From Acidobacteriota bacterium (GTDB lineage: Bacteria > Acidobacteriota > Thermoanaerobaculia > UBA5066 > Gp7-AA6), in assembly GCA_046725935.1 (NCBI GenBank), contig JBKOZO010000073.1, positions 9,341 through 73,340 of the forward strand: 64,000 bases of DNA, written 5' to 3'. Within the stretch, counting starts at the first letter, position 1. Each line of letters starts with the position of its first letter. The translations under genes were made by a program, and so were the position numbers. This document shows, one piece after another, positions 9,348 through 57,627 of this stretch. Below the pieces are notes generated by a model. It was not told the DNA's origin and ran no database searches. It saw only the letters and a program-made list of their open reading frames with translations.

Positions 9348-10217
9348 GTGCCGAAGATCCGCGTGGCCGTCTTCCCCGCCGCGGGCCTCGGCACCCGGTT
9401 CCTGCCAGCCACAAAGGCGCAGCCCAAGGAGATGCTCCCGCTCGTCGACCGTCCGCTCATCCAGTACGTCGTCGAGGAAGCCCGGGACGCCGGCATCTCC
9501 CGCATCGTCATCGTGACCGGACGCGGCAAAAACGCCATCGAAGACCACTTCGACACCTCGTACGAGCTCGAGCGCACGCTCGAGGAGAAGGGCAAGAACC
9601 TGCTCCTCGGCGAGGTCCGGGAGGTCGCGGAGCTCATCCCGGTCTCCTACGTCCGGCAGAAGCAGGCGCTGGGTCTCGGCCACGCCGTGCTGCAGGCGCG
9701 CGATCTCGTCGGCGACCAGCCGTTCGCGGTCATGCTCGGAGACGACATCGTGGACGCCGAGGAGCCCTGCATCGGCCAGATGATTCGGCTCTACGAGCGG
9801 CGCGGCAACCCGGTGATCGCGCTCCAGGAAGTGCCGCGCTCCGAGACGCGCCAGTACGGAATCGTCGCCGGGGAGAAGATCGAAGACCGCGTGGTCCGCG
9901 TGACGGACATGGTCGAGAAGCCGTCGCCCGAGAATGCGCCATCGAACCTCGCGATCATCGGCCGGTACCTCCTGCCGCCCGAGATCTTCGGCATTCTCGG
10001 CGAGACCAAGCCCGAGGTCGGCGGCGAGATCCAGCTGACGAGCGCTCTGAAGACGCTCCTGTCGCGCCGGCCCGTCGACGGGTACCTCTTCGAAGGGAAA
10101 CGCTACGACGCCGGAGACAAGCTCGGGTTTCTCAAGGCGACGGTGGAGTTCGCGTTGAAACGCCCCGATCTCGGCGCGCCGTTTCGCGAGTACCTGAAGG
10201 CCCTCAAGCTCGACTGA
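9348..10217 (+). CDS. galU: UTP-glucose-1-phosphate uridylyltransferase
   Basis: 289 aa with N-terminal FPAAGLGTRFLPATKAQPKEMLP and VEKP motifs typical of GalU. It uses a GTG start. Confidence 0.92.
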   Translation: MPKIRVAVFPAAGLGTRFLPATKAQPKEMLPLVDRPLIQYVVEEARDAGISRIVIVTGRGKNAIEDHFDTSYELERTLEEKGKNLLLGEVREVAELIPVSYVRQKQALGLGHAVLQARDLVGDQPFAVMLGDDIVDAEEPCIGQMIRLYERRGNPVIALQEVPRSETRQYGIVAGEKIEDRVVRVTDMVEKPSPENAPSNLAIIGRYLLPPEIFGILGETKPEVGGEIQLTSALKTLLSRRPVDGYLFEGKRYDAGDKLGFLKATVEFALKRPDLGAPFREYLKALKLD

Positions 10218-17566: not shown

Positions 17567-18782
17567 GCGTCAGAGCGTCCATGATCGGGAGCCGCGAAGC
17601 GCGACGAGCCGGAAAGTAGGCGGCGACGGTCATCGTCACCAGCATCGCCACGAACCCCACGCCGTACGTCAGCGGGTAGAGCTTCACGTTCAGGGGCGCT
17701 CCGGTCGTGCCTCCGGGAGGAGGAGGCAGCGTCAGGCCCGAGGCGTTCAAGACCCAACGCACGATGAGCGCGAGCAGCGCGCCGGCGGCGCAGCCGATGA
17801 GGGCGAGGGCGACTCCCTCCACCAGGAACATCTTCCGAACGCCCGCAGGGCGCGTCCCGAGCGCGCGCAGCGTCCCGATTTCCCGGGTCCGTTCGGTCAC
17901 CGCCATCGCCATCACGATCGCCGCCGAGAGGATCACGATGACGACCAGAACCGCTCCGATGAATCCGAAGATTCCGATGTAGAGCAGTCGGACCTGTCCG
18001 TAGAAGACGGCCAGGTCCTGCCATCGCTGGATGGCCAGCGGGAAGCCGGCGGCGTGGAGCGCGGCTTTCAGCCGTTCGGCCACCTTCGCCTCGTCGACGC
18101 GAGGCTTCAGGAACACGACGAGCTTGGAGACGGTGTCTTCGCTCTGCAGCAGGCGCGAGACGAGGCCGATTCCCGCCGCCAGGTAGCGGTCGTTGAGCTC
18201 CTTGATCTTGACGTCCACGAGACCGGCCACGATCCCGTCGACCGCGTTGAGAGAGCCGTCGGGCGTGGTGGCCAGAAGCGTGATGCGCCCGCCGACGCCG
18301 ACGCCGAGGGCGCTGGCCAGTCCCGTGCCGAGGACGACGTTGTCGTCGCCGTCTCCCGAGAGGTACTTGCCCTTCACCAGCATCTCGGGAGCCATCGTCG
18401 CCTTCGCTTCCGGCTCCGGGTCCACACCCACGCCGAGAAACGGTATCGAGCGGGAGCCGTTGGTCGCCAGACCCACGAACTCGATTCTCGGAAGGACCGC
18501 GGCGACGTCCGGATCGCGCGACGCGACGGAGCGGGCCCGGTGCGCGTCATGGATGCCGAACTCGAGCGTGACGTCCTCGGCCTTGCCGACGGCGCGCGGG
18601 TCCACGGCCTGGAGGTGTCCGACGGTCCGAATCGTGCCCTCGCGGAGCGTCTCGAACGACTGGGCGACGAACCCGCCCGCCAGCGCGAAAGCGGCGAACC
18701 CGAAGGTCACCACCGCGATCATGAGGAGGCTCCGCCGCCGCTGGCGGGCGATGTTGCGCAGAGCCAGGGCGAAGGCGTTCAT
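17559..18782 (-). CDS. ABC transporter permease, FtsX/MacB-like
   Basis: 407 aa with an N-terminal TM helix, a large periplasmic domain and a C-terminal 3-TM FtsX domain. It overlaps both neighbouring genes. Confidence 0.85.
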   Translation of the reverse strand: MNAFALALRNIARQRRRSLLMIAVVTFGFAAFALAGGFVAQSFETLREGTIRTVGHLQAVDPRAVGKAEDVTLEFGIHDAHRARSVASRDPDVAAVLPRIEFVGLATNGSRSIPFLGVGVDPEPEAKATMAPEMLVKGKYLSGDGDDNVVLGTGLASALGVGVGGRITLLATTPDGSLNAVDGIVAGLVDVKIKELNDRYLAAGIGLVSRLLQSEDTVSKLVVFLKPRVDEAKVAERLKAALHAAGFPLAIQRWQDLAVFYGQVRLLYIGIFGFIGAVLVVIVILSAAIVMAMAVTERTREIGTLRALGTRPAGVRKMFLVEGVALALIGCAAGALLALIVRWVLNASGLTLPPPPGGTTGAPLNVKLYPLTYGVGFVAMLVTMTVAAYFPARRASRLPIMDALTHV

Positions 18783-53172: not shown

Positions 53173-54822
53173 TTGCTCCACTCCCGCAAAGCGTTGCTGA
53201 TCGTCGTCGCGGCGCTCGCGTCCGTGAGCTCAACCTGGCGCACGGGAGACGAGGTCGCATCGCTGCGCGACATCGTCTCGAGCGGGCACCTGGCCGATCT
53301 TCGCTGGCCCGACTTCTCCGATTACAAGGAGCATCTCGCCGCGTTCTACGAGCCGGCCGGCTACGCACCGGCGTGGCTCCAGGGCGGGCAGCCGACGCCG
53401 CAGGCTCTCGAGCTGATCCGGCAGTTCGAGGAGGCCTGGAAGAAAGGACTGGAGCCCGAAGACTACGACGCCTCGCGGTGGAACGCGCGCCTCGAGGCCC
53501 TGAAGGGACCCGGGGCGGACCCGGCCCGATTCGACGCGGCGATGAGCGTTTGCGCCATGCGTCTCGTGTCGGATCTTCGAATCGGACGCACCAACCCGCA
53601 GCATTTCCACTTCGGTCTGAGCGTCGAGGCGAAGAAGTACGACCTCGCGCGTTTCCTTCGCGAGCGGTTACTGACGTCGTCGGACATTCCTTCGCTCATC
53701 GACTCCGTCGAGCCGCCCTTCGGGGGCTATCGCCGGACCCGGGCCGCGCTCGTCCGCTACATCGAGCTCGCGCGGCGCGACGACTTCGAAAAGCTTCCGA
53801 CTCCGGCGAAACCCGTCGATCCCGGCAAGCCCTACGCCGGAGCGCCCCGGCTTCGCCGGCTCCTGACGCTCGTCGGCGATCTCCCGCCGGACGCGGCAGG
53901 GCCGGCCGATCTGCAGACCTACGACACGGCACTCGCGGAGGCGGTCAAGCGTTTTCAGCTCCGCCACGGCCTCGACGCCGACGGACGCCTCGGGCCCGGG
54001 ACCGTCCTGGAGCTCAACGTGCCGCTCTCGGACCGCGTGCGTCAGCTGCAGCTCGCGCTGGAACGCTGGCGCTGGCTGCCGGCCGAGTTCTCCGCGCCCC
54101 CGATCTTCGTCAACATCCCCGACTTTCGCCTGCGCACCGTCGGCGCCGACGGCCGGGTCGTCATGGACATGCCCGTCGTGGTCGGAAAGGCCATGCGGAC
54201 CGAGACGCCCGTCTTCTCGCGGGACATGATCTACGTCGTCTTCCGGCCTTACTGGAACGTTCCACCCAGCATTCTCCGCGCCGAGATCGTTCCCGCGATC
54301 CAGCGCGACCGCAATTACATCGCCCGGAAGGGATTCGAGATCACGACGCCCGACGGCCGGGTGGTCACCGACGGACCTGTTTCTGACGATGTCCTCGCAC
54401 AGCTCAAGGCGAGCAAGCTCGCTGTGCGTCAGAAGCCGGGAACAACCAATGCTCTCGGGCTCGTCAAGCTCATGTTCCCGAACGAGTACAACGTCTACCT
54501 GCACAGCACGCCGGCCCAGGAACTGTTTTCGAAGACCCGCCGCGACTTCAGCCACGGCTGCATCCGCGTGGAAAAGCCCGCGGAGCTCGCCGCGTGGGCG
54601 CTTCGCGACAATCCCGACTGGCCGCTCGAACGCGTCCAGTCCGCCATGCAGACGGGCCCGGACAACGTGACGGTCAAGCTCGTCCGCCCGATCCCGGTGT
54701 TCATCGTCTACGCGACGGCGTACGCCTACGAGAACGGCGAGGTCCACTTCTGGGACGACATCTACGGCCACGACGCCACGCTCGAGCAGGCGCTGGCCCA
54801 GGGCTATCCCTACCCCTGGTAG
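53173..54822 (+). CDS. L,D-transpeptidase (YcbB-like) with peptidoglycan-binding domain
   Basis: It has PG-binding AVKRFQLRHGLDADGRLGPGT and the YkuD catalytic region HSTP...FSHGCIRVE. It uses a non-ATG start. Confidence 0.88.
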   Translation: MLHSRKALLIVVAALASVSSTWRTGDEVASLRDIVSSGHLADLRWPDFSDYKEHLAAFYEPAGYAPAWLQGGQPTPQALELIRQFEEAWKKGLEPEDYDASRWNARLEALKGPGADPARFDAAMSVCAMRLVSDLRIGRTNPQHFHFGLSVEAKKYDLARFLRERLLTSSDIPSLIDSVEPPFGGYRRTRAALVRYIELARRDDFEKLPTPAKPVDPGKPYAGAPRLRRLLTLVGDLPPDAAGPADLQTYDTALAEAVKRFQLRHGLDADGRLGPGTVLELNVPLSDRVRQLQLALERWRWLPAEFSAPPIFVNIPDFRLRTVGADGRVVMDMPVVVGKAMRTETPVFSRDMIYVVFRPYWNVPPSILRAEIVPAIQRDRNYIARKGFEITTPDGRVVTDGPVSDDVLAQLKASKLAVRQKPGTTNALGLVKLMFPNEYNVYLHSTPAQELFSKTRRDFSHGCIRVEKPAELAAWALRDNPDWPLERVQSAMQTGPDNVTVKLVRPIPVFIVYATAYAYENGEVHFWDDIYGHDATLEQALAQGYPYPW

Positions 54823-54864
54823 ACGGTTCGGACGGCTAAGTTCGGTAGGCGTGACGCGACGCTT

Positions 54865-54891
54865 TTGGCAGAAGCGTGTGGGAGTCGAACC
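54865..54891. repeat. 27-nt direct repeat of the tRNA-Sec 3' end (distal att-like site)
   Basis: ttggcAgaagcgtgtgggagtcgaacc matches ttggcGgaagcgtgtgggagtcgaacc at 56828-56854 (26/27), in the same orientation. Confidence 0.85.
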
Positions 54892-55398
54892 TATTCCGAT
54901 TTGTAGGCTTTCTTAGGGAATTCGAGCACTTTGTCAGCGCCGGTGGCGGTCTTGCAGCGAACCGGAGCGAACCAATTGCGTTTCGCGAGACCTGTTGGCT
55001 AGCTCCTTCGCGACCAGGAGGCGAAAACTTGTTGAGGAGTCTCTACCAGGCCTTGAGTTGGGTCGACTGTCTCAAGACCGGTACCACAGATGGCATCTCG
55101 GCCCCGAGCAAGCCGTGGAAGCCCACCGTCGCGTGCGCGGCGCGGTCATGTTGCGGGTGCACTGGGGTCTCTTCGCCCTGGCGTCGCACGGCACGGCTGG
55201 ACCGAGCCGATCGAGCGAGTGCTCGTGGCGGCCCGCGACGCGGGTGCGGTGGTCATCTCTCCTCCGCCGGGGCAGAGCGTCGAGCCGACCGCGGAGAGGC
55301 CTCAGCAGCATTGGTGGCCGACACGGCCATGGCGCACCGGGGCGGAGAACCCGGTCGTCGCGCACCACGGGGACTGAGCCGCTCGCGTCGGCGGAAGA

Positions 55399-55977
55399 TC
55401 AGGTTCGCAGCGATCCAACGTGTCGATAACTGTTGATGAGCACGCCAGAGGACATGGCCTTCGTGCCGACGAGAGCGAGCTCGCGCGGGTCCGCACTGTC
55501 CGAAAAGAAGCGTTTGCCCAGGCCCAGCAAGACCGGGTAGACGAGCAGCAGAACCTCGTCGACCAGTCCCTGCTCGAGCAGCACGGACGTCAGCGTCGAA
55601 CTTCCCCAGAGGATCAGGTCAGGGCCGTCCTTCGACTTGACGCCGCGAATACCCTCCATGACGTCCGCGCCGAGGTTCCCGACCGGGCCCCATTCGAGGC
55701 TGTCCGGCCTGTGGGTCGCGACGTATTTCGTCGCAGCATTCAGACCGTTTGCTATCGGACTATTCCCGGCCTTCGGCCAGTAGCCGGACCAGAGATCGTA
55801 GGTGCGGCGGCCAAGCAGCAGATCGAAGTTGCTGCCCTGTGCCTCCATGACGGCCTCTAACCCAGCCGGGGTTCGATATGGCGCCGTCCATCCGCCGTTC
55901 GCGAAGTCTTCGCCCCGTCCGCCGGGCGATATCACGCCGTCCAGCGAGATGTGTTCCATGATTTTGATCTTTCTCAT
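55399..55977 (-). CDS. Dihydrofolate reductase-like (RibD C-terminal domain) family protein
   Basis: 192 aa starting MRKIKIMEHISLDGVI, with LLLGRRTYD and LILWGSSTL motifs. Confidence 0.85.
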   Translation of the reverse strand: MRKIKIMEHISLDGVISPGGRGEDFANGGWTAPYRTPAGLEAVMEAQGSNFDLLLGRRTYDLWSGYWPKAGNSPIANGLNAATKYVATHRPDSLEWGPVGNLGADVMEGIRGVKSKDGPDLILWGSSTLTSVLLEQGLVDEVLLLVYPVLLGLGKRFFSDSADPRELALVGTKAMSSGVLINSYRHVGSLRT

Positions 55978-56031
55978 TTTGCGTCTCCATCTGTCAGATG
56001 TTTTCTCCTCTCGCGTCCGACACCGAACAGC

Positions 56032-56481
56032 TCAGCTCCGCTTCGCCGCCTGCGCCGCGAGCTCGTCGTGCATCCTCCGCTCGCGCGCTACAGCCTCGTC
56101 AGTACGCACGTCGTCTGCCGGCAAGTCCGACATCTCGTAGACCTGCCGGATCTCGATCTCGGACACCTCGTCGTCGCCGAACGGGGCGGGGCAGCGCTTC
56201 ACCCACTCGATCGCTTCCTCTTTCGATTTGACCTGGATCAGCCAGAATCCGGCGACGAGCTCCTTGGTCTCCGCGAAGGGTCCGTCGATCACGGACCGTT
56301 TCCCGTGGTCGAAGCGGACGCGGGCGCCCTTGGAGCTCGGCTGGAGGCCCTCGGCGGCCAGCATCACGCCCGCCTTCACCATCTCCTCGTTGAACCGGCC
56401 CACCGCCTCAATGGCCTCCCACTTGGGCGGCGCGCCGGTCTCGGAATCCTTGTTCGCCTTGAGGATCACCATGAAACGCAT
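56032..56481 (-). CDS. YciI-family protein
   Basis: 149 aa with MRFMVILKAN...DGPFAETKELVAGFWLIQVKSKEEAIEW, typical of YciI/DGPF proteins. Confidence 0.85.
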   Translation of the reverse strand: MRFMVILKANKDSETGAPPKWEAIEAVGRFNEEMVKAGVMLAAEGLQPSSKGARVRFDHGKRSVIDGPFAETKELVAGFWLIQVKSKEEAIEWVKRCPAPFGDDEVSEIEIRQVYEMSDLPADDVRTDEAVARERRMHDELAAQAAKRS

Positions 56482-56828
56482 TGCAGACTCCTTTCGTTCT
56501 CCGTGAGAACCGGGTCACCGGGACGTCCGCCGGTCCGAAATCCCGCTCTCTGACAGAACGACGAACGATACCGGCCGAAATCGACAACCGGCGATCAGGA
56601 TTTTCTCGCGCCGGCAAGGAGGACAGCGATGATCAAATATCCCAACGGGGGCATCGAGCCCTTCTCATCGTCGGGTTTTCTTGGCGTCGGCAGACAAGGC
56701 CGCGCGCGTTCAGCGGGACTGTCAGCGAACCACCCGCCTCCGGTCGCCATTTCTGGGTTTCCAACTGCAGTCGGAAACGAGAGAGCGCCCGATTTCTCAG
56801 GCGCTTGCCTGGCGGCAGGGAGCGGGGT

Positions 56829-56927
56829 TGGCGGAAGCGTGTGGGAGTCGAACCCACCCGTCCCGGCGTTCGCCGCGACGCCGACGGATTTGAAGTCCGC
56901 GGGGGTCACCGGACCCCGTGCGCCTCC
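56829..56927 (-). tRNA. selC: tRNA-Sec (selenocysteine, anticodon UCA)
   Basis: The 99-nt reverse-strand sequence is GGAGGCGCACGGGGTCCGGTGACCCCCGCGGACTTCAAATCCGTCGGCGTCGCGGCGAACGCCGGGACGGGTGGGTTCGACTCCCACACGCTTCCGCCA. It has a 6-bp D-stem with a 4-nt loop, anticodon loop CTTCAAA, a long variable arm, T-loop GGTTCGACTCC and an encoded CCA. It closely parallels E. coli selC. Confidence 0.87.
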
Positions 56928-56973: not shown

Positions 56974-57627
56974 CTAGCGGTTCGCGACCGTCTCGGTAGA
57001 AACGCCGGGCTCGAAGCGGCGGAATACGAGCGCGACCAGGCCGAGCCGGATGGAATCGCCGTCGCGGAGAGGGTGACTGCCTTCGAGCCGGTGATTGCGC
57101 AGGAACGTTCCGTTCTTGCTGCCGAGGTCCTCGAGGCGCGCGGCCGTCCCGTCGATGACGATGCGTGCGTGGTGGCGGGACACGGATGCGTGGTCCACCG
57201 GAATGTCCGCGTCGGGGTCGCGGCCGAGCACGTACGTCCCTTCCGCGAGGGCAATTTCGCGTTCTCCCCACACGAGGGCGTAGAGCGACGGCGGCGCGGG
57301 GACGGCTGCCTTTGCGCCGCTTTCGACGACTTCGCCGTGGAAGGCGTAACCGAAGCGGGGCACCGTGCGCACGAATCGAGGCGCGTTCGCGTCGTCTCCG
57401 ATCACTTCGCGCAGCTCGGCCACGAGACGGGCGAGGTTGCCTTCGGCCACGAAAACCCCCGGCCAGAGGGCTTCCATCAGGTTGTCTTTGGAAACGGCGG
57501 CGGGCCGCTGCGCAAGGAGCAGCTCCAGCAGGCGAAAGACCTTGGGCGGAACGTGAACAACCGCGCCGCGGCGCGACAGCTCACGTGTCCGGCCGTCGAA
57601 GACGCAATCCCCGAAGGAAACGGTCAT
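56974..57627 (-). CDS. Transcriptional regulator: N-terminal OmpR/CadC-type winged helix fused to a C-terminal FHA domain
   Basis: The wHTH region reads LSRRGAVVHVPPKVFRLLELLLAQRPAAVSKDNLMEALW...VRTVPRFGYAF. The FHA region reads LGRDPDADIPVDHASVSRHHARI...LEDLGSKNGTFLRN. This is a mini-EmbR-like layout without the BTAD domain. Confidence 0.8.
   Translation of the reverse strand: MTVSFGDCVFDGRTRELSRRGAVVHVPPKVFRLLELLLAQRPAAVSKDNLMEALWPGVFVAEGNLARLVAELREVIGDDANAPRFVRTVPRFGYAFHGEVVESGAKAAVPAPPSLYALVWGEREIALAEGTYVLGRDPDADIPVDHASVSRHHARIVIDGTAARLEDLGSKNGTFLRNHRLEGSHPLRDGDSIRLGLVALVFRRFEPGVSTETVANR

Follow-up and report, generated by a model that had tools for sequence, protein, structure and literature searches.

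Genomic islands that tyrosine integrases have inserted into tRNA and tmRNA genes are catalogued in Islander (PMC4383910). Such an island has an intact, restored tRNA gene on one side and, on the other, a displaced 3' fragment of it in the same orientation; one of its ends carries an integrase gene, and a relative lacks the island. The selenocysteine tRNA gene (tRNA-Sec, selC) is the target of islands with P4-type integrases in Enterobacteriaceae, including the LEE (locus of enterocyte effacement), pathogenicity island (PAI) I of E. coli 536 and others (PMC7545054, PMC6174562). In streptococci, decayed remnants of ICEs (integrative and conjugative elements) or IMEs (integrative and mobilizable elements) which retain the attachment (att) sites attL and attR are described as cis-mobilizable elements (CIMEs) (PMC6323972, PMC5704250). 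Here we analyse a 64-kb stretch of DNA (the window; contig C73 of a 4.5-Mb, 90% complete metagenome-assembled genome of an Acidobacteriota bacterium), in which a 1.96-kb islet adjoins the tRNA-Sec gene. The islet is very probably the remnant of a decayed integrative element. A decayed islet at selC had been proposed from the DNA alone (the original prediction), and this proposal is supported by an empty site in the closest relative (genome G004), by co-oriented repeats of the tRNA end in about 16 of 39 genomes of the genus, and by conserved termini at both ends of the islet.

The locus shares with the Islander islands the intact tRNA gene and its displaced fragment, the empty site in a relative (with an outer spacer that differs), a cargo that looks foreign, and the location of the integrase gene at one end. 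It differs in its host, an uncultured acidobacterium, and in that the integrase is reduced to about the last 30 codons, so that the automated Islander procedure, which requires an integrase gene, would not call the islet. With the enterobacterial selC islands it has in common the tRNA-Sec 3' end as target, the recurrent use of this target and the eroded stumps devoid of an integrase. The integrase lineage, however, is unrelated to the P4 type: the tRNA-Sec integrases found here match PF00589 only, with a weak score, and no DUF4102/P4-type arm-binding domain is detected in them by Pfam. Furthermore, the integrase gene lies far from the tRNA, is read towards attR and carries candidate arm sites in its own C-terminal coding region, and the islet is 2 kb long, compared with tens of kb, and contains no virulence genes. 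The resemblance to streptococcal CIMEs consists of the two att sites, the lack of recombination and transfer genes, the likely origin by deletion and the tandem accretion seen in relatives. Both cores and both arms are recognizable, and the sole genes are those for a RibD_C protein, a YciI protein and a fragment of a metallo-beta-lactamase (MBL)-fold hydrolase; a Pfam scan of all open reading frames (ORFs) of the islet detects no relaxase, oriT or conjugation genes of the ICE/IME kind. Unlike in CIMEs, the att arms are damaged and the genome has no conjugative partner; mobilization is hypothetical here. The islet is thus a known type of tRNA-integrated tyrosine-integrase island, decayed to a CIME-like state, an ordinary genomic scar.

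tRNA-Sec, its displaced 3' end and the empty site

The tRNA gene, the two cores and the two arms beside them are located as follows:

54865-54891, minus strand: attR core, displaced tRNA-Sec end (its last 26 nt, from T loop to CCA, and 1 nt more), mismatched at 54870
54891-54990, minus strand: P arm, integrase 3'-end remnant (last 30-odd codons), from an arm hidden Markov model (HMM), model R1, the G030 pseudogene and tail translations
56707-56827, no strand: P' arm, the element end adjoining the tRNA, from an HMM, model R2 and alignments
56828-56854, minus strand: attL core, functional tRNA-Sec 3' end and the 1 nt that follows it
56829-56927, minus strand: tRNA-Sec gene, anticodon UCA, CCA encoded (ARAGORN and Rfam RF01852)

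The tRNA gene read from the sequence by the original prediction is confirmed. It is the only tRNA called in the window by ARAGORN (tRNA-SeC, anticodon tca), it scores 67.6 bits with Rfam model RF01852 (gathering score 47), and according to this model its D arm has a 6-bp stem and a 4-nt loop. There is a single copy of tRNA-Sec in the genome. The genes selA (447 bits) and selB (313 bits), for which a search had been recommended, are both found elsewhere in the genome with scores above the curated cut-offs; therefore, this tRNA-Sec belongs to a working selenocysteine system.

The 27-mer TTGGCGGAAGCGTGTGGGAGTCGAACC at 56828-56854 recurs on the same strand at 54865-54891 with one mismatch (G to A at 54870). 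The repeat had been noticed originally and stands, with the correction that the tRNA-side copy starts at 56828. On the tRNA strand it comprises the T loop, the 3' strand of the acceptor, the discriminator, the encoded CCA and one base beyond the tRNA. In 100 dinucleotide-preserving shuffles the 27-mer had no match, with up to three mismatches allowed. The distal repeat had also to be checked as a possible part of a second, degenerate tRNA; the ARAGORN and Rfam scans show nothing tRNA-like near it. A search with the 27-mer finds no trace of a third core.

The whole-locus search against 60 relatives identified G004 as the closest one and provided the empty site that had been sought among related genomes. 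The L,D-transpeptidase gene that flanks the distal repeat in the window is 92% identical in G004, where it ends at C290:9721 and the tRNA match starts at 9729. The junction reads ...CCCTGG TAG CGCGAGG TGGCGGAAGCG..., with 7 nt between the stop codon and tRNA-Sec, which ARAGORN calls there. Neither arm is detected in G004 by the arm models, and the locus search finds no close copies of the islet genes. Other species of the genus have tRNA-Sec at another location and a conserved convergent gene within 10-25 nt after the transpeptidase gene; that the L,D-transpeptidase gene and tRNA-Sec are neighbors is a rearrangement peculiar to this genome and G004. Contigs from public soil metagenomes reproduce the junction of transpeptidase gene, spacer, core and P arm without differences. 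These contigs are short, of low depth and fragmentary, and there is no excised or circular joint across the repeats among them.

Arms beside the two cores

The DNA beside the distal repeat had been described as AT-richer, and it is: the GC content is 0.555-0.575 at 54800-55099, compared with 0.595-0.67 over the cargo genes and 0.66-0.74 in the flanks. Judging by its homologs, this DNA is the last 30-odd codons of the tyrosine integrase gene of the element. Alignment of the inner side of distal repeats from 17 loci reveals a conserved stretch of about 75 nt that is common to the window (54892-54968) and nine other genomes and in which (T)TGTCAGCG occurs twice in direct orientation, at a distance of about 21 nt. 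A P-arm HMM built from the nine other genomes, with the window excluded, matches positions 54891-54963 (E 3.8e-10), and the score of the window P arm with model R1 is 56.7 bits; weak homology possibly extends to about 55045. The two motif copies in the window are TTGTCAGCG at 54931-54939 and TTG-CAGCGAAC at 54952-54962, the latter damaged by a 1-nt deletion. In a search of 44 genomes of the genus, models based on sequence only yield 13 strong P-arm matches, all but one of which (12 of 13) touch a distal core, whereas two weak matches adjoin integrase genes on other tRNA fragments (G034:C17 and G002:C6).

The integrase ORF of G034:C17 (395 aa, PF00589) spans the arm and has its stop codon directly at the core; its tail is ...LSDRKRSASDRVVKFQSKRAG*, and the repeated motif in it, TGTCAGAT, encodes a repeated S-D-R. 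When this integrase was used as a tblastn query against 13 islets, a near full-length pseudogene in three frames was detected in G030 (residues 24-395, E 1e-67), a degenerate piece with stop codons in G002 (residues 260-394), a fragment in G028 (residues 252-309) and the tail alone in G006. The assignment of the P arm to an integrase end follows from the G030 arm, which is the 3' end of the frameshifted pseudogene, and from the tail that the translated arms share, R-F/L-A-D-K/T-x4-A-D-K/R-V/I-x-K/E-F-P-...-stop, where TGTCAGCG is the reverse complement of the A-D codons. The window P arm translates as ...RNAIGSLRFA, then, after the 1-nt deletion inside the first motif copy, as KTATGADKVLEFPKKAYKSE*, with the stop codon at 54893-54891 overlapping the last base of the repeat core. 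The recognition of this remnant came via the DNA homology of the element end and the closer integrase G034:C17. For a full-length family 1 (see below) parent integrase, GGTTCGACTCCCACACGCTTCCGCCA is the sequence that would adjoin its expected end (...RFADxxxxxADK(V/I)xxFP..*).

The islet was originally thought to be devoid of an intact integrase, which holds: there is no Pfam match to PF00589 in the islet or in any frame of 54876-55436, and tblastn with three tRNA-Sec-associated integrases gives nothing on the same interval; the integrase is present solely as the tail remnant of about 30 codons. The recombinase end suspected on the minus strand near 55090-55200, in contrast, is not borne out. 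The minus-strand frame 55043-55189 was rejected as an integrase since Pfam and tblastn identify it as the antisense of the hydrolase fragment, and the true remnant extends from 54891 to about 54990. The fragment itself is:

55094-55326, plus strand: C-terminal fragment of an MBL-fold (Lactamase_B_2) hydrolase, pseudogene (Pfam, tblastn and DNA identity)

It corresponds to residues ~308-383 of 383 and is 5'-truncated and frameshifted. The match to PF12706 covers profile positions 165-200 of 200 (E 6.5e-4), and the DNA is 70% identical to a gene on G024:C10 encoding a 383-aa MBL-fold protein. By tblastn, residues 308-351 of this protein align with 55094-55225 and residues 335-383 with 55180-55326 (E 1e-6 and 6e-7, respectively).

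At the other end of the islet, a P' stretch of about 125 nt is shared with G030, G067, G028, G006 and G012 and is also found beside the orphan cores of G033:C3 and G031:C57. It contains two direct copies of TGTCAGCGA(AC), 12 nt apart, which are represented in the window by GTTCAGCG at 56707-56714 and TGTCAGCGAAC at 56719-56729. The P' arm also holds a C-rich stretch and, directly downstream of the tRNA, a terminator-like hairpin (56784-56805). A P'-arm HMM without window sequences matches 56710-56819 (E 6.4e-11), and model R2 gives a score of 70 bits. In the 44 genomes, strong P'-arm matches adjoin tRNA-Sec or orphan cores, and further copies occur without a core; in the window, the arm HMMs find essentially nothing besides the two islet ends.

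The possibility that the P' arm is a native chromosomal flank, suggested by the resemblance of G022 and the orphan site of G033, was considered and rejected because the arm occurs beside orphan cores (G031:C57, G033:C3) and at sites without a core (G028:C1, G066:C13, G027:C1), because it is absent from G004 and several other genomes, and because its repeat motif co-varies with the motif of the integrase tail. The orphan site of G033:C3 (L027 7800-7966), where a P' arm and a tRNA-Sec 3' fragment with one mismatch lie beside a class II ribonucleotide reductase gene, is more than 400 kb away from any contig end, and the intact tRNA-Sec of this genome is on another contig; this orphan arm is probably a product of rearrangement between att sites.

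Three integrase lineages are associated with tRNA-Sec, each with its own short motif, which is present in two direct copies in the last ~25 codons of the integrase and in two to three copies of the same orientation in the opposite arm, about 100-130 nt from the core. The motif is TGTCAGCG in family 1, GCGGGCGAA for integrase int1 of G062 (read TTCGCCCGC on the G062 strand; the int1 element is intact) and CTTTCTGG for int2 of the same genome. Identity is 52% between the G034 integrase and int2 of G062, and 32-34% between int1 and either of them. The motif sites on G062:C18 are at L044 2219-2330, at L050 2320-2365 and 2444-2600, and at L045 ~17700-17800. Such co-variation of motif and integrase is what arm-type integrase binding sites would show, and supports the view that both arms are element-borne. 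The three motifs, which match between opposite arms across the three lineages, may be regarded as lineage-specific candidate arm sites, and a clade of integrases with P-arm repeats inside their own last codons would offer a ready set of integrase/arm-site specificities.

Recurrent integration at tRNA-Sec in the genus

The 26-nt tRNA end was searched for, with up to three mismatches, in the 44 genomes of the genus and was found in 39. About 16 of the 39 have the tRNA end twice on one contig, the second copy being co-oriented with the first and in every case 0.6-35 kb downstream of the tRNA; several genomes have orphan copies elsewhere. Two elements of about 18 and 17 kb are arranged in tandem behind tRNA-Sec in G062; their integrases are intact (391 and ~397 aa; PF00589) and are read towards the distal repeat, ending 4-50 nt from the core. 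Active elements that target tRNA-Sec therefore exist in the genus. There is no PF00589 match in any of the small islets (0.6-6.4 kb). The family 1 P arms are tail-only or pseudogenes in 15 of 15 cases, of which 13 are in genomes of the genus and two in metagenome contigs of the Joint Genome Institute (JGI), L104, with the integrase tail alone, and L103 (2 kb), without integrase homology. Together, these loci form a dated-looking decay series from an intact element through a pseudogene and a fragment to a tail. tRNA-Sec is thus a recurrent integration hot spot far beyond Enterobacteriaceae, an extension of modest but real wider value.

The cargo differs wholly among islets with the same ends. 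According to ORF reading alone, with no domain search, it includes a methyltransferase, an arsenic-resistance cluster, a sulfatase, an ABC permease and a DUF488 protein, among others. In the 4.6-kb islet of G006 (L034, G006:C2:440655-445255), the reading of the ORFs suggests an arsenic-resistance set between family 1 arms, consisting of ArsR, a glyoxalase-like protein, an ACR3 efflux protein and an ArsC-like phosphatase. The islets of G008:C54 and G024:C6 (L037 and L043) combine a family 1 P arm (TGTCAGCG) with a family 2 P' arm (GCGGGCGAA), which points to two accreted elements that a deletion across the middle core then joined.

Proposed history and alternative explanations

The repeat, the empty site in G004, arms with homologs elsewhere on both sides, remnants of the integrase tail and of the MBL gene, and a genome that lacks a helper integrase are what is observed; from these we infer the following order of events. 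Integration by a tyrosine integrase would have targeted the tRNA-Sec 3' end, the crossover falling between T loop and CCA. Recombination between attP (P' arm, core and P arm) and the tRNA end would have rebuilt the intact tRNA at attL and left the displaced fragment at attR. The integrase gene would have been located at the far end and read towards attR, its stop codon touching the core and its last ~25 codons containing two arm-type TGTCAGCG repeats, with two more copies supplied by the P' arm. A later deletion between the integrase gene and the divergent MBL gene would have cost the integrase gene about 90% of its length and the hydrolase gene its 5' three quarters; because the integrase stump points to the left and the hydrolase stump to the right, a single deletion between divergent genes covers both. 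This event would have immobilized the element, and the RibD_C and YciI cargo, which is intact, was presumably kept by selection.

In the 90% complete genome there is no non-Xer tyrosine recombinase; the only two PF00589 matches are of the XerC/XerD kind, a pair that is present in every genome of the genus. Given that the genome lacks an integrase besides this pair, the islet is probably immobile now. The damage consists of the distal-core mismatch and of one impaired arm motif on each side, namely the degenerate P' copy and the P copy with the 1-nt deletion.

Several observations weigh against the reading of the islet as an element that decayed in place. The outer spacer is 42 nt long in the window vs 7 nt in G004, with at most CGCGA in common, and on the side of tRNA-Sec away from the islet about 4 kb are missing from G004 as well. 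Because of the different spacer and this deletion, G004 represents neither a simple pre-integration state nor a clean excision, and is not a pristine ancestor. Full-length integrases produce no significant tblastn match to the window, in which the integrase homology amounts to about 30 codons and DNA-level similarity. No intact family 1 integrase adjoins tRNA-Sec in the genomes of the genus or in the JGI metagenome contigs, so that the autonomous parent is reconstructed from paralogs and a pseudogene. Finally, the islets of G008 and G024 mix arms of two families, and composite origin thus does occur. With regard to the loss in G004, a fusion in G004:C290 (L025 3829-4360), compared with window positions 57029 to ~61300, marks its position: the last ~18 codons of the FHA regulator gene are joined to the C-terminal part of the second BNR-type paralog.

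One alternative, which we consider unlikely, is that the islet itself is composite, the distal core and the integrase tail being an old fossil and the P' arm together with some of the cargo coming from a later element that integrated at the tRNA, with a deletion across the middle core that fused the two. The tandem arrays in G062 and G028, the chimeric arm families in G008 and G024, and the occurrence in G012 and G024 of the same outer flank and P arm with different cargo and P' arm are all consistent with such an origin. However, both arms in the window belong to family 1, there is no trace of a third core, and a single deletion between the integrase and MBL genes accounts for both stumps without extra events. 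The shared arm family also fits a non-autonomous yet mobilizable CIME-like element, with both att cores and both sets of arm-type sites retained, that the integrase of an intact relative would excise and reinsert in trans, as do the wholly different cargoes between the same ends and the fact that none of the 15 family 1 P arms is more than a tail or a pseudogene. Moreover, 7 of 10 remnants are no longer than 150 nt and end just past the two motif copies, unlike uniformly placed deletion end-points in a 1.2-kb gene. This scenario is nevertheless quite improbable for the window islet, in view of the P-arm copy with the 1-nt deletion, the degenerate P' copy, the core mismatch and the lack of a non-Xer tyrosine recombinase in the genome. 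The integrases of G030, G028 and G002 form a graded decay series, a single integrase should not recombine the mixed arms of G008 and G024, and the soil metagenome contigs, which are sparse, contain no excised or circular junction.

On the scale of the genus, a related and rather doubtful possibility is that small non-autonomous cargo modules, moved by integrases in trans, use tRNA-Sec as their docking site. Such modules may keep the cis parts alone, with a minimal P arm (about 70 nt of integrase C-terminal tail with two arm-type repeats) alongside the core and the P' arm; if so, the tail-only state would be selected at the level of the element, as with miniature inverted-repeat transposable elements (MITEs), rather than reflect random decay. 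By far the least credible explanation, which the present results refute, has no mobile element involved and takes the 27-nt repeat for a chance match, part of a degenerate second tRNA or a local duplication. Nothing but the shortness of the repeat speaks for it, whereas no shuffled sequence reproduces the match, nothing tRNA-like lies near 54865, the tRNA body is replaced there by an integrase 3' end common to other genomes, and the insert is absent from G004.

Cargo genes and flanks of the islet

The remaining features of the islet and its outer border are:

54823-54864, no strand: 42-nt spacer separating the distal repeat from the stop codon of the L,D-transpeptidase gene, presumed chromosomal flank (B')
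55399-55977, minus strand: RibD_C/dihydrofolate-reductase-like protein, 192 aa, intact (Pfam PF01872, E 9e-13)
56032-56481, minus strand: YCII-family protein, 149 aa, intact (Pfam PF03795, E 4e-19)

Pfam thus bears out the two genes that had been assigned to the islet from the sequence, and the ~850 bp of apparently non-coding DNA is made up of the att arms, the integrase stump and the hydrolase pseudogene. Proteins of eight or more phyla match the RibD_C protein along its whole length with 73-84% identity, among them those of Gemmatimonadota, Planctomycetota, Bacteroidota, Verrucomicrobiota, Leptospira, Proteobacteria and others. The gene is 85% identical at the nucleotide level to a gene in another family of the order (G047), compared with 77-78% for the transpeptidase gene within the genus. 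Judging from these identities, it is a promiscuously transferred and very mobile gene, with a predicted function. For the YciI gene, this genome and others of the genus contain acidobacterial paralogs (69-79% nucleotide identity). The two genes were considered as a travelling pair, which was rejected: only one of 42 loci in other phyla has a YciI neighbor, and a distant one. The cargo looks foreign by its GC composition and by the cross-phylum identity of RibD_C, which marks both genes as horizontally acquired.

The left flank of the distal repeat is the L,D-transpeptidase gene (53173-54822), in which Pfam identifies Scaffold, PG_binding_1 and YkuD domains. The 42-nt outer spacer was examined as a degenerate P' arm and rejected, the P' arm model giving no match. 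To the right of tRNA-Sec lies a regulator gene with winged-helix (Trans_reg_C) and FHA domains (Pfam). Elsewhere in the genus, G013:C10 contains two complete tRNA-Sec genes 3.9 kb apart (L029 6141-6239 and 10065-10163) within a tandem duplication that repeats part of the neighboring gene, with a tRNA-Leu(gag) in between; the duplication is either real or an assembly artefact.

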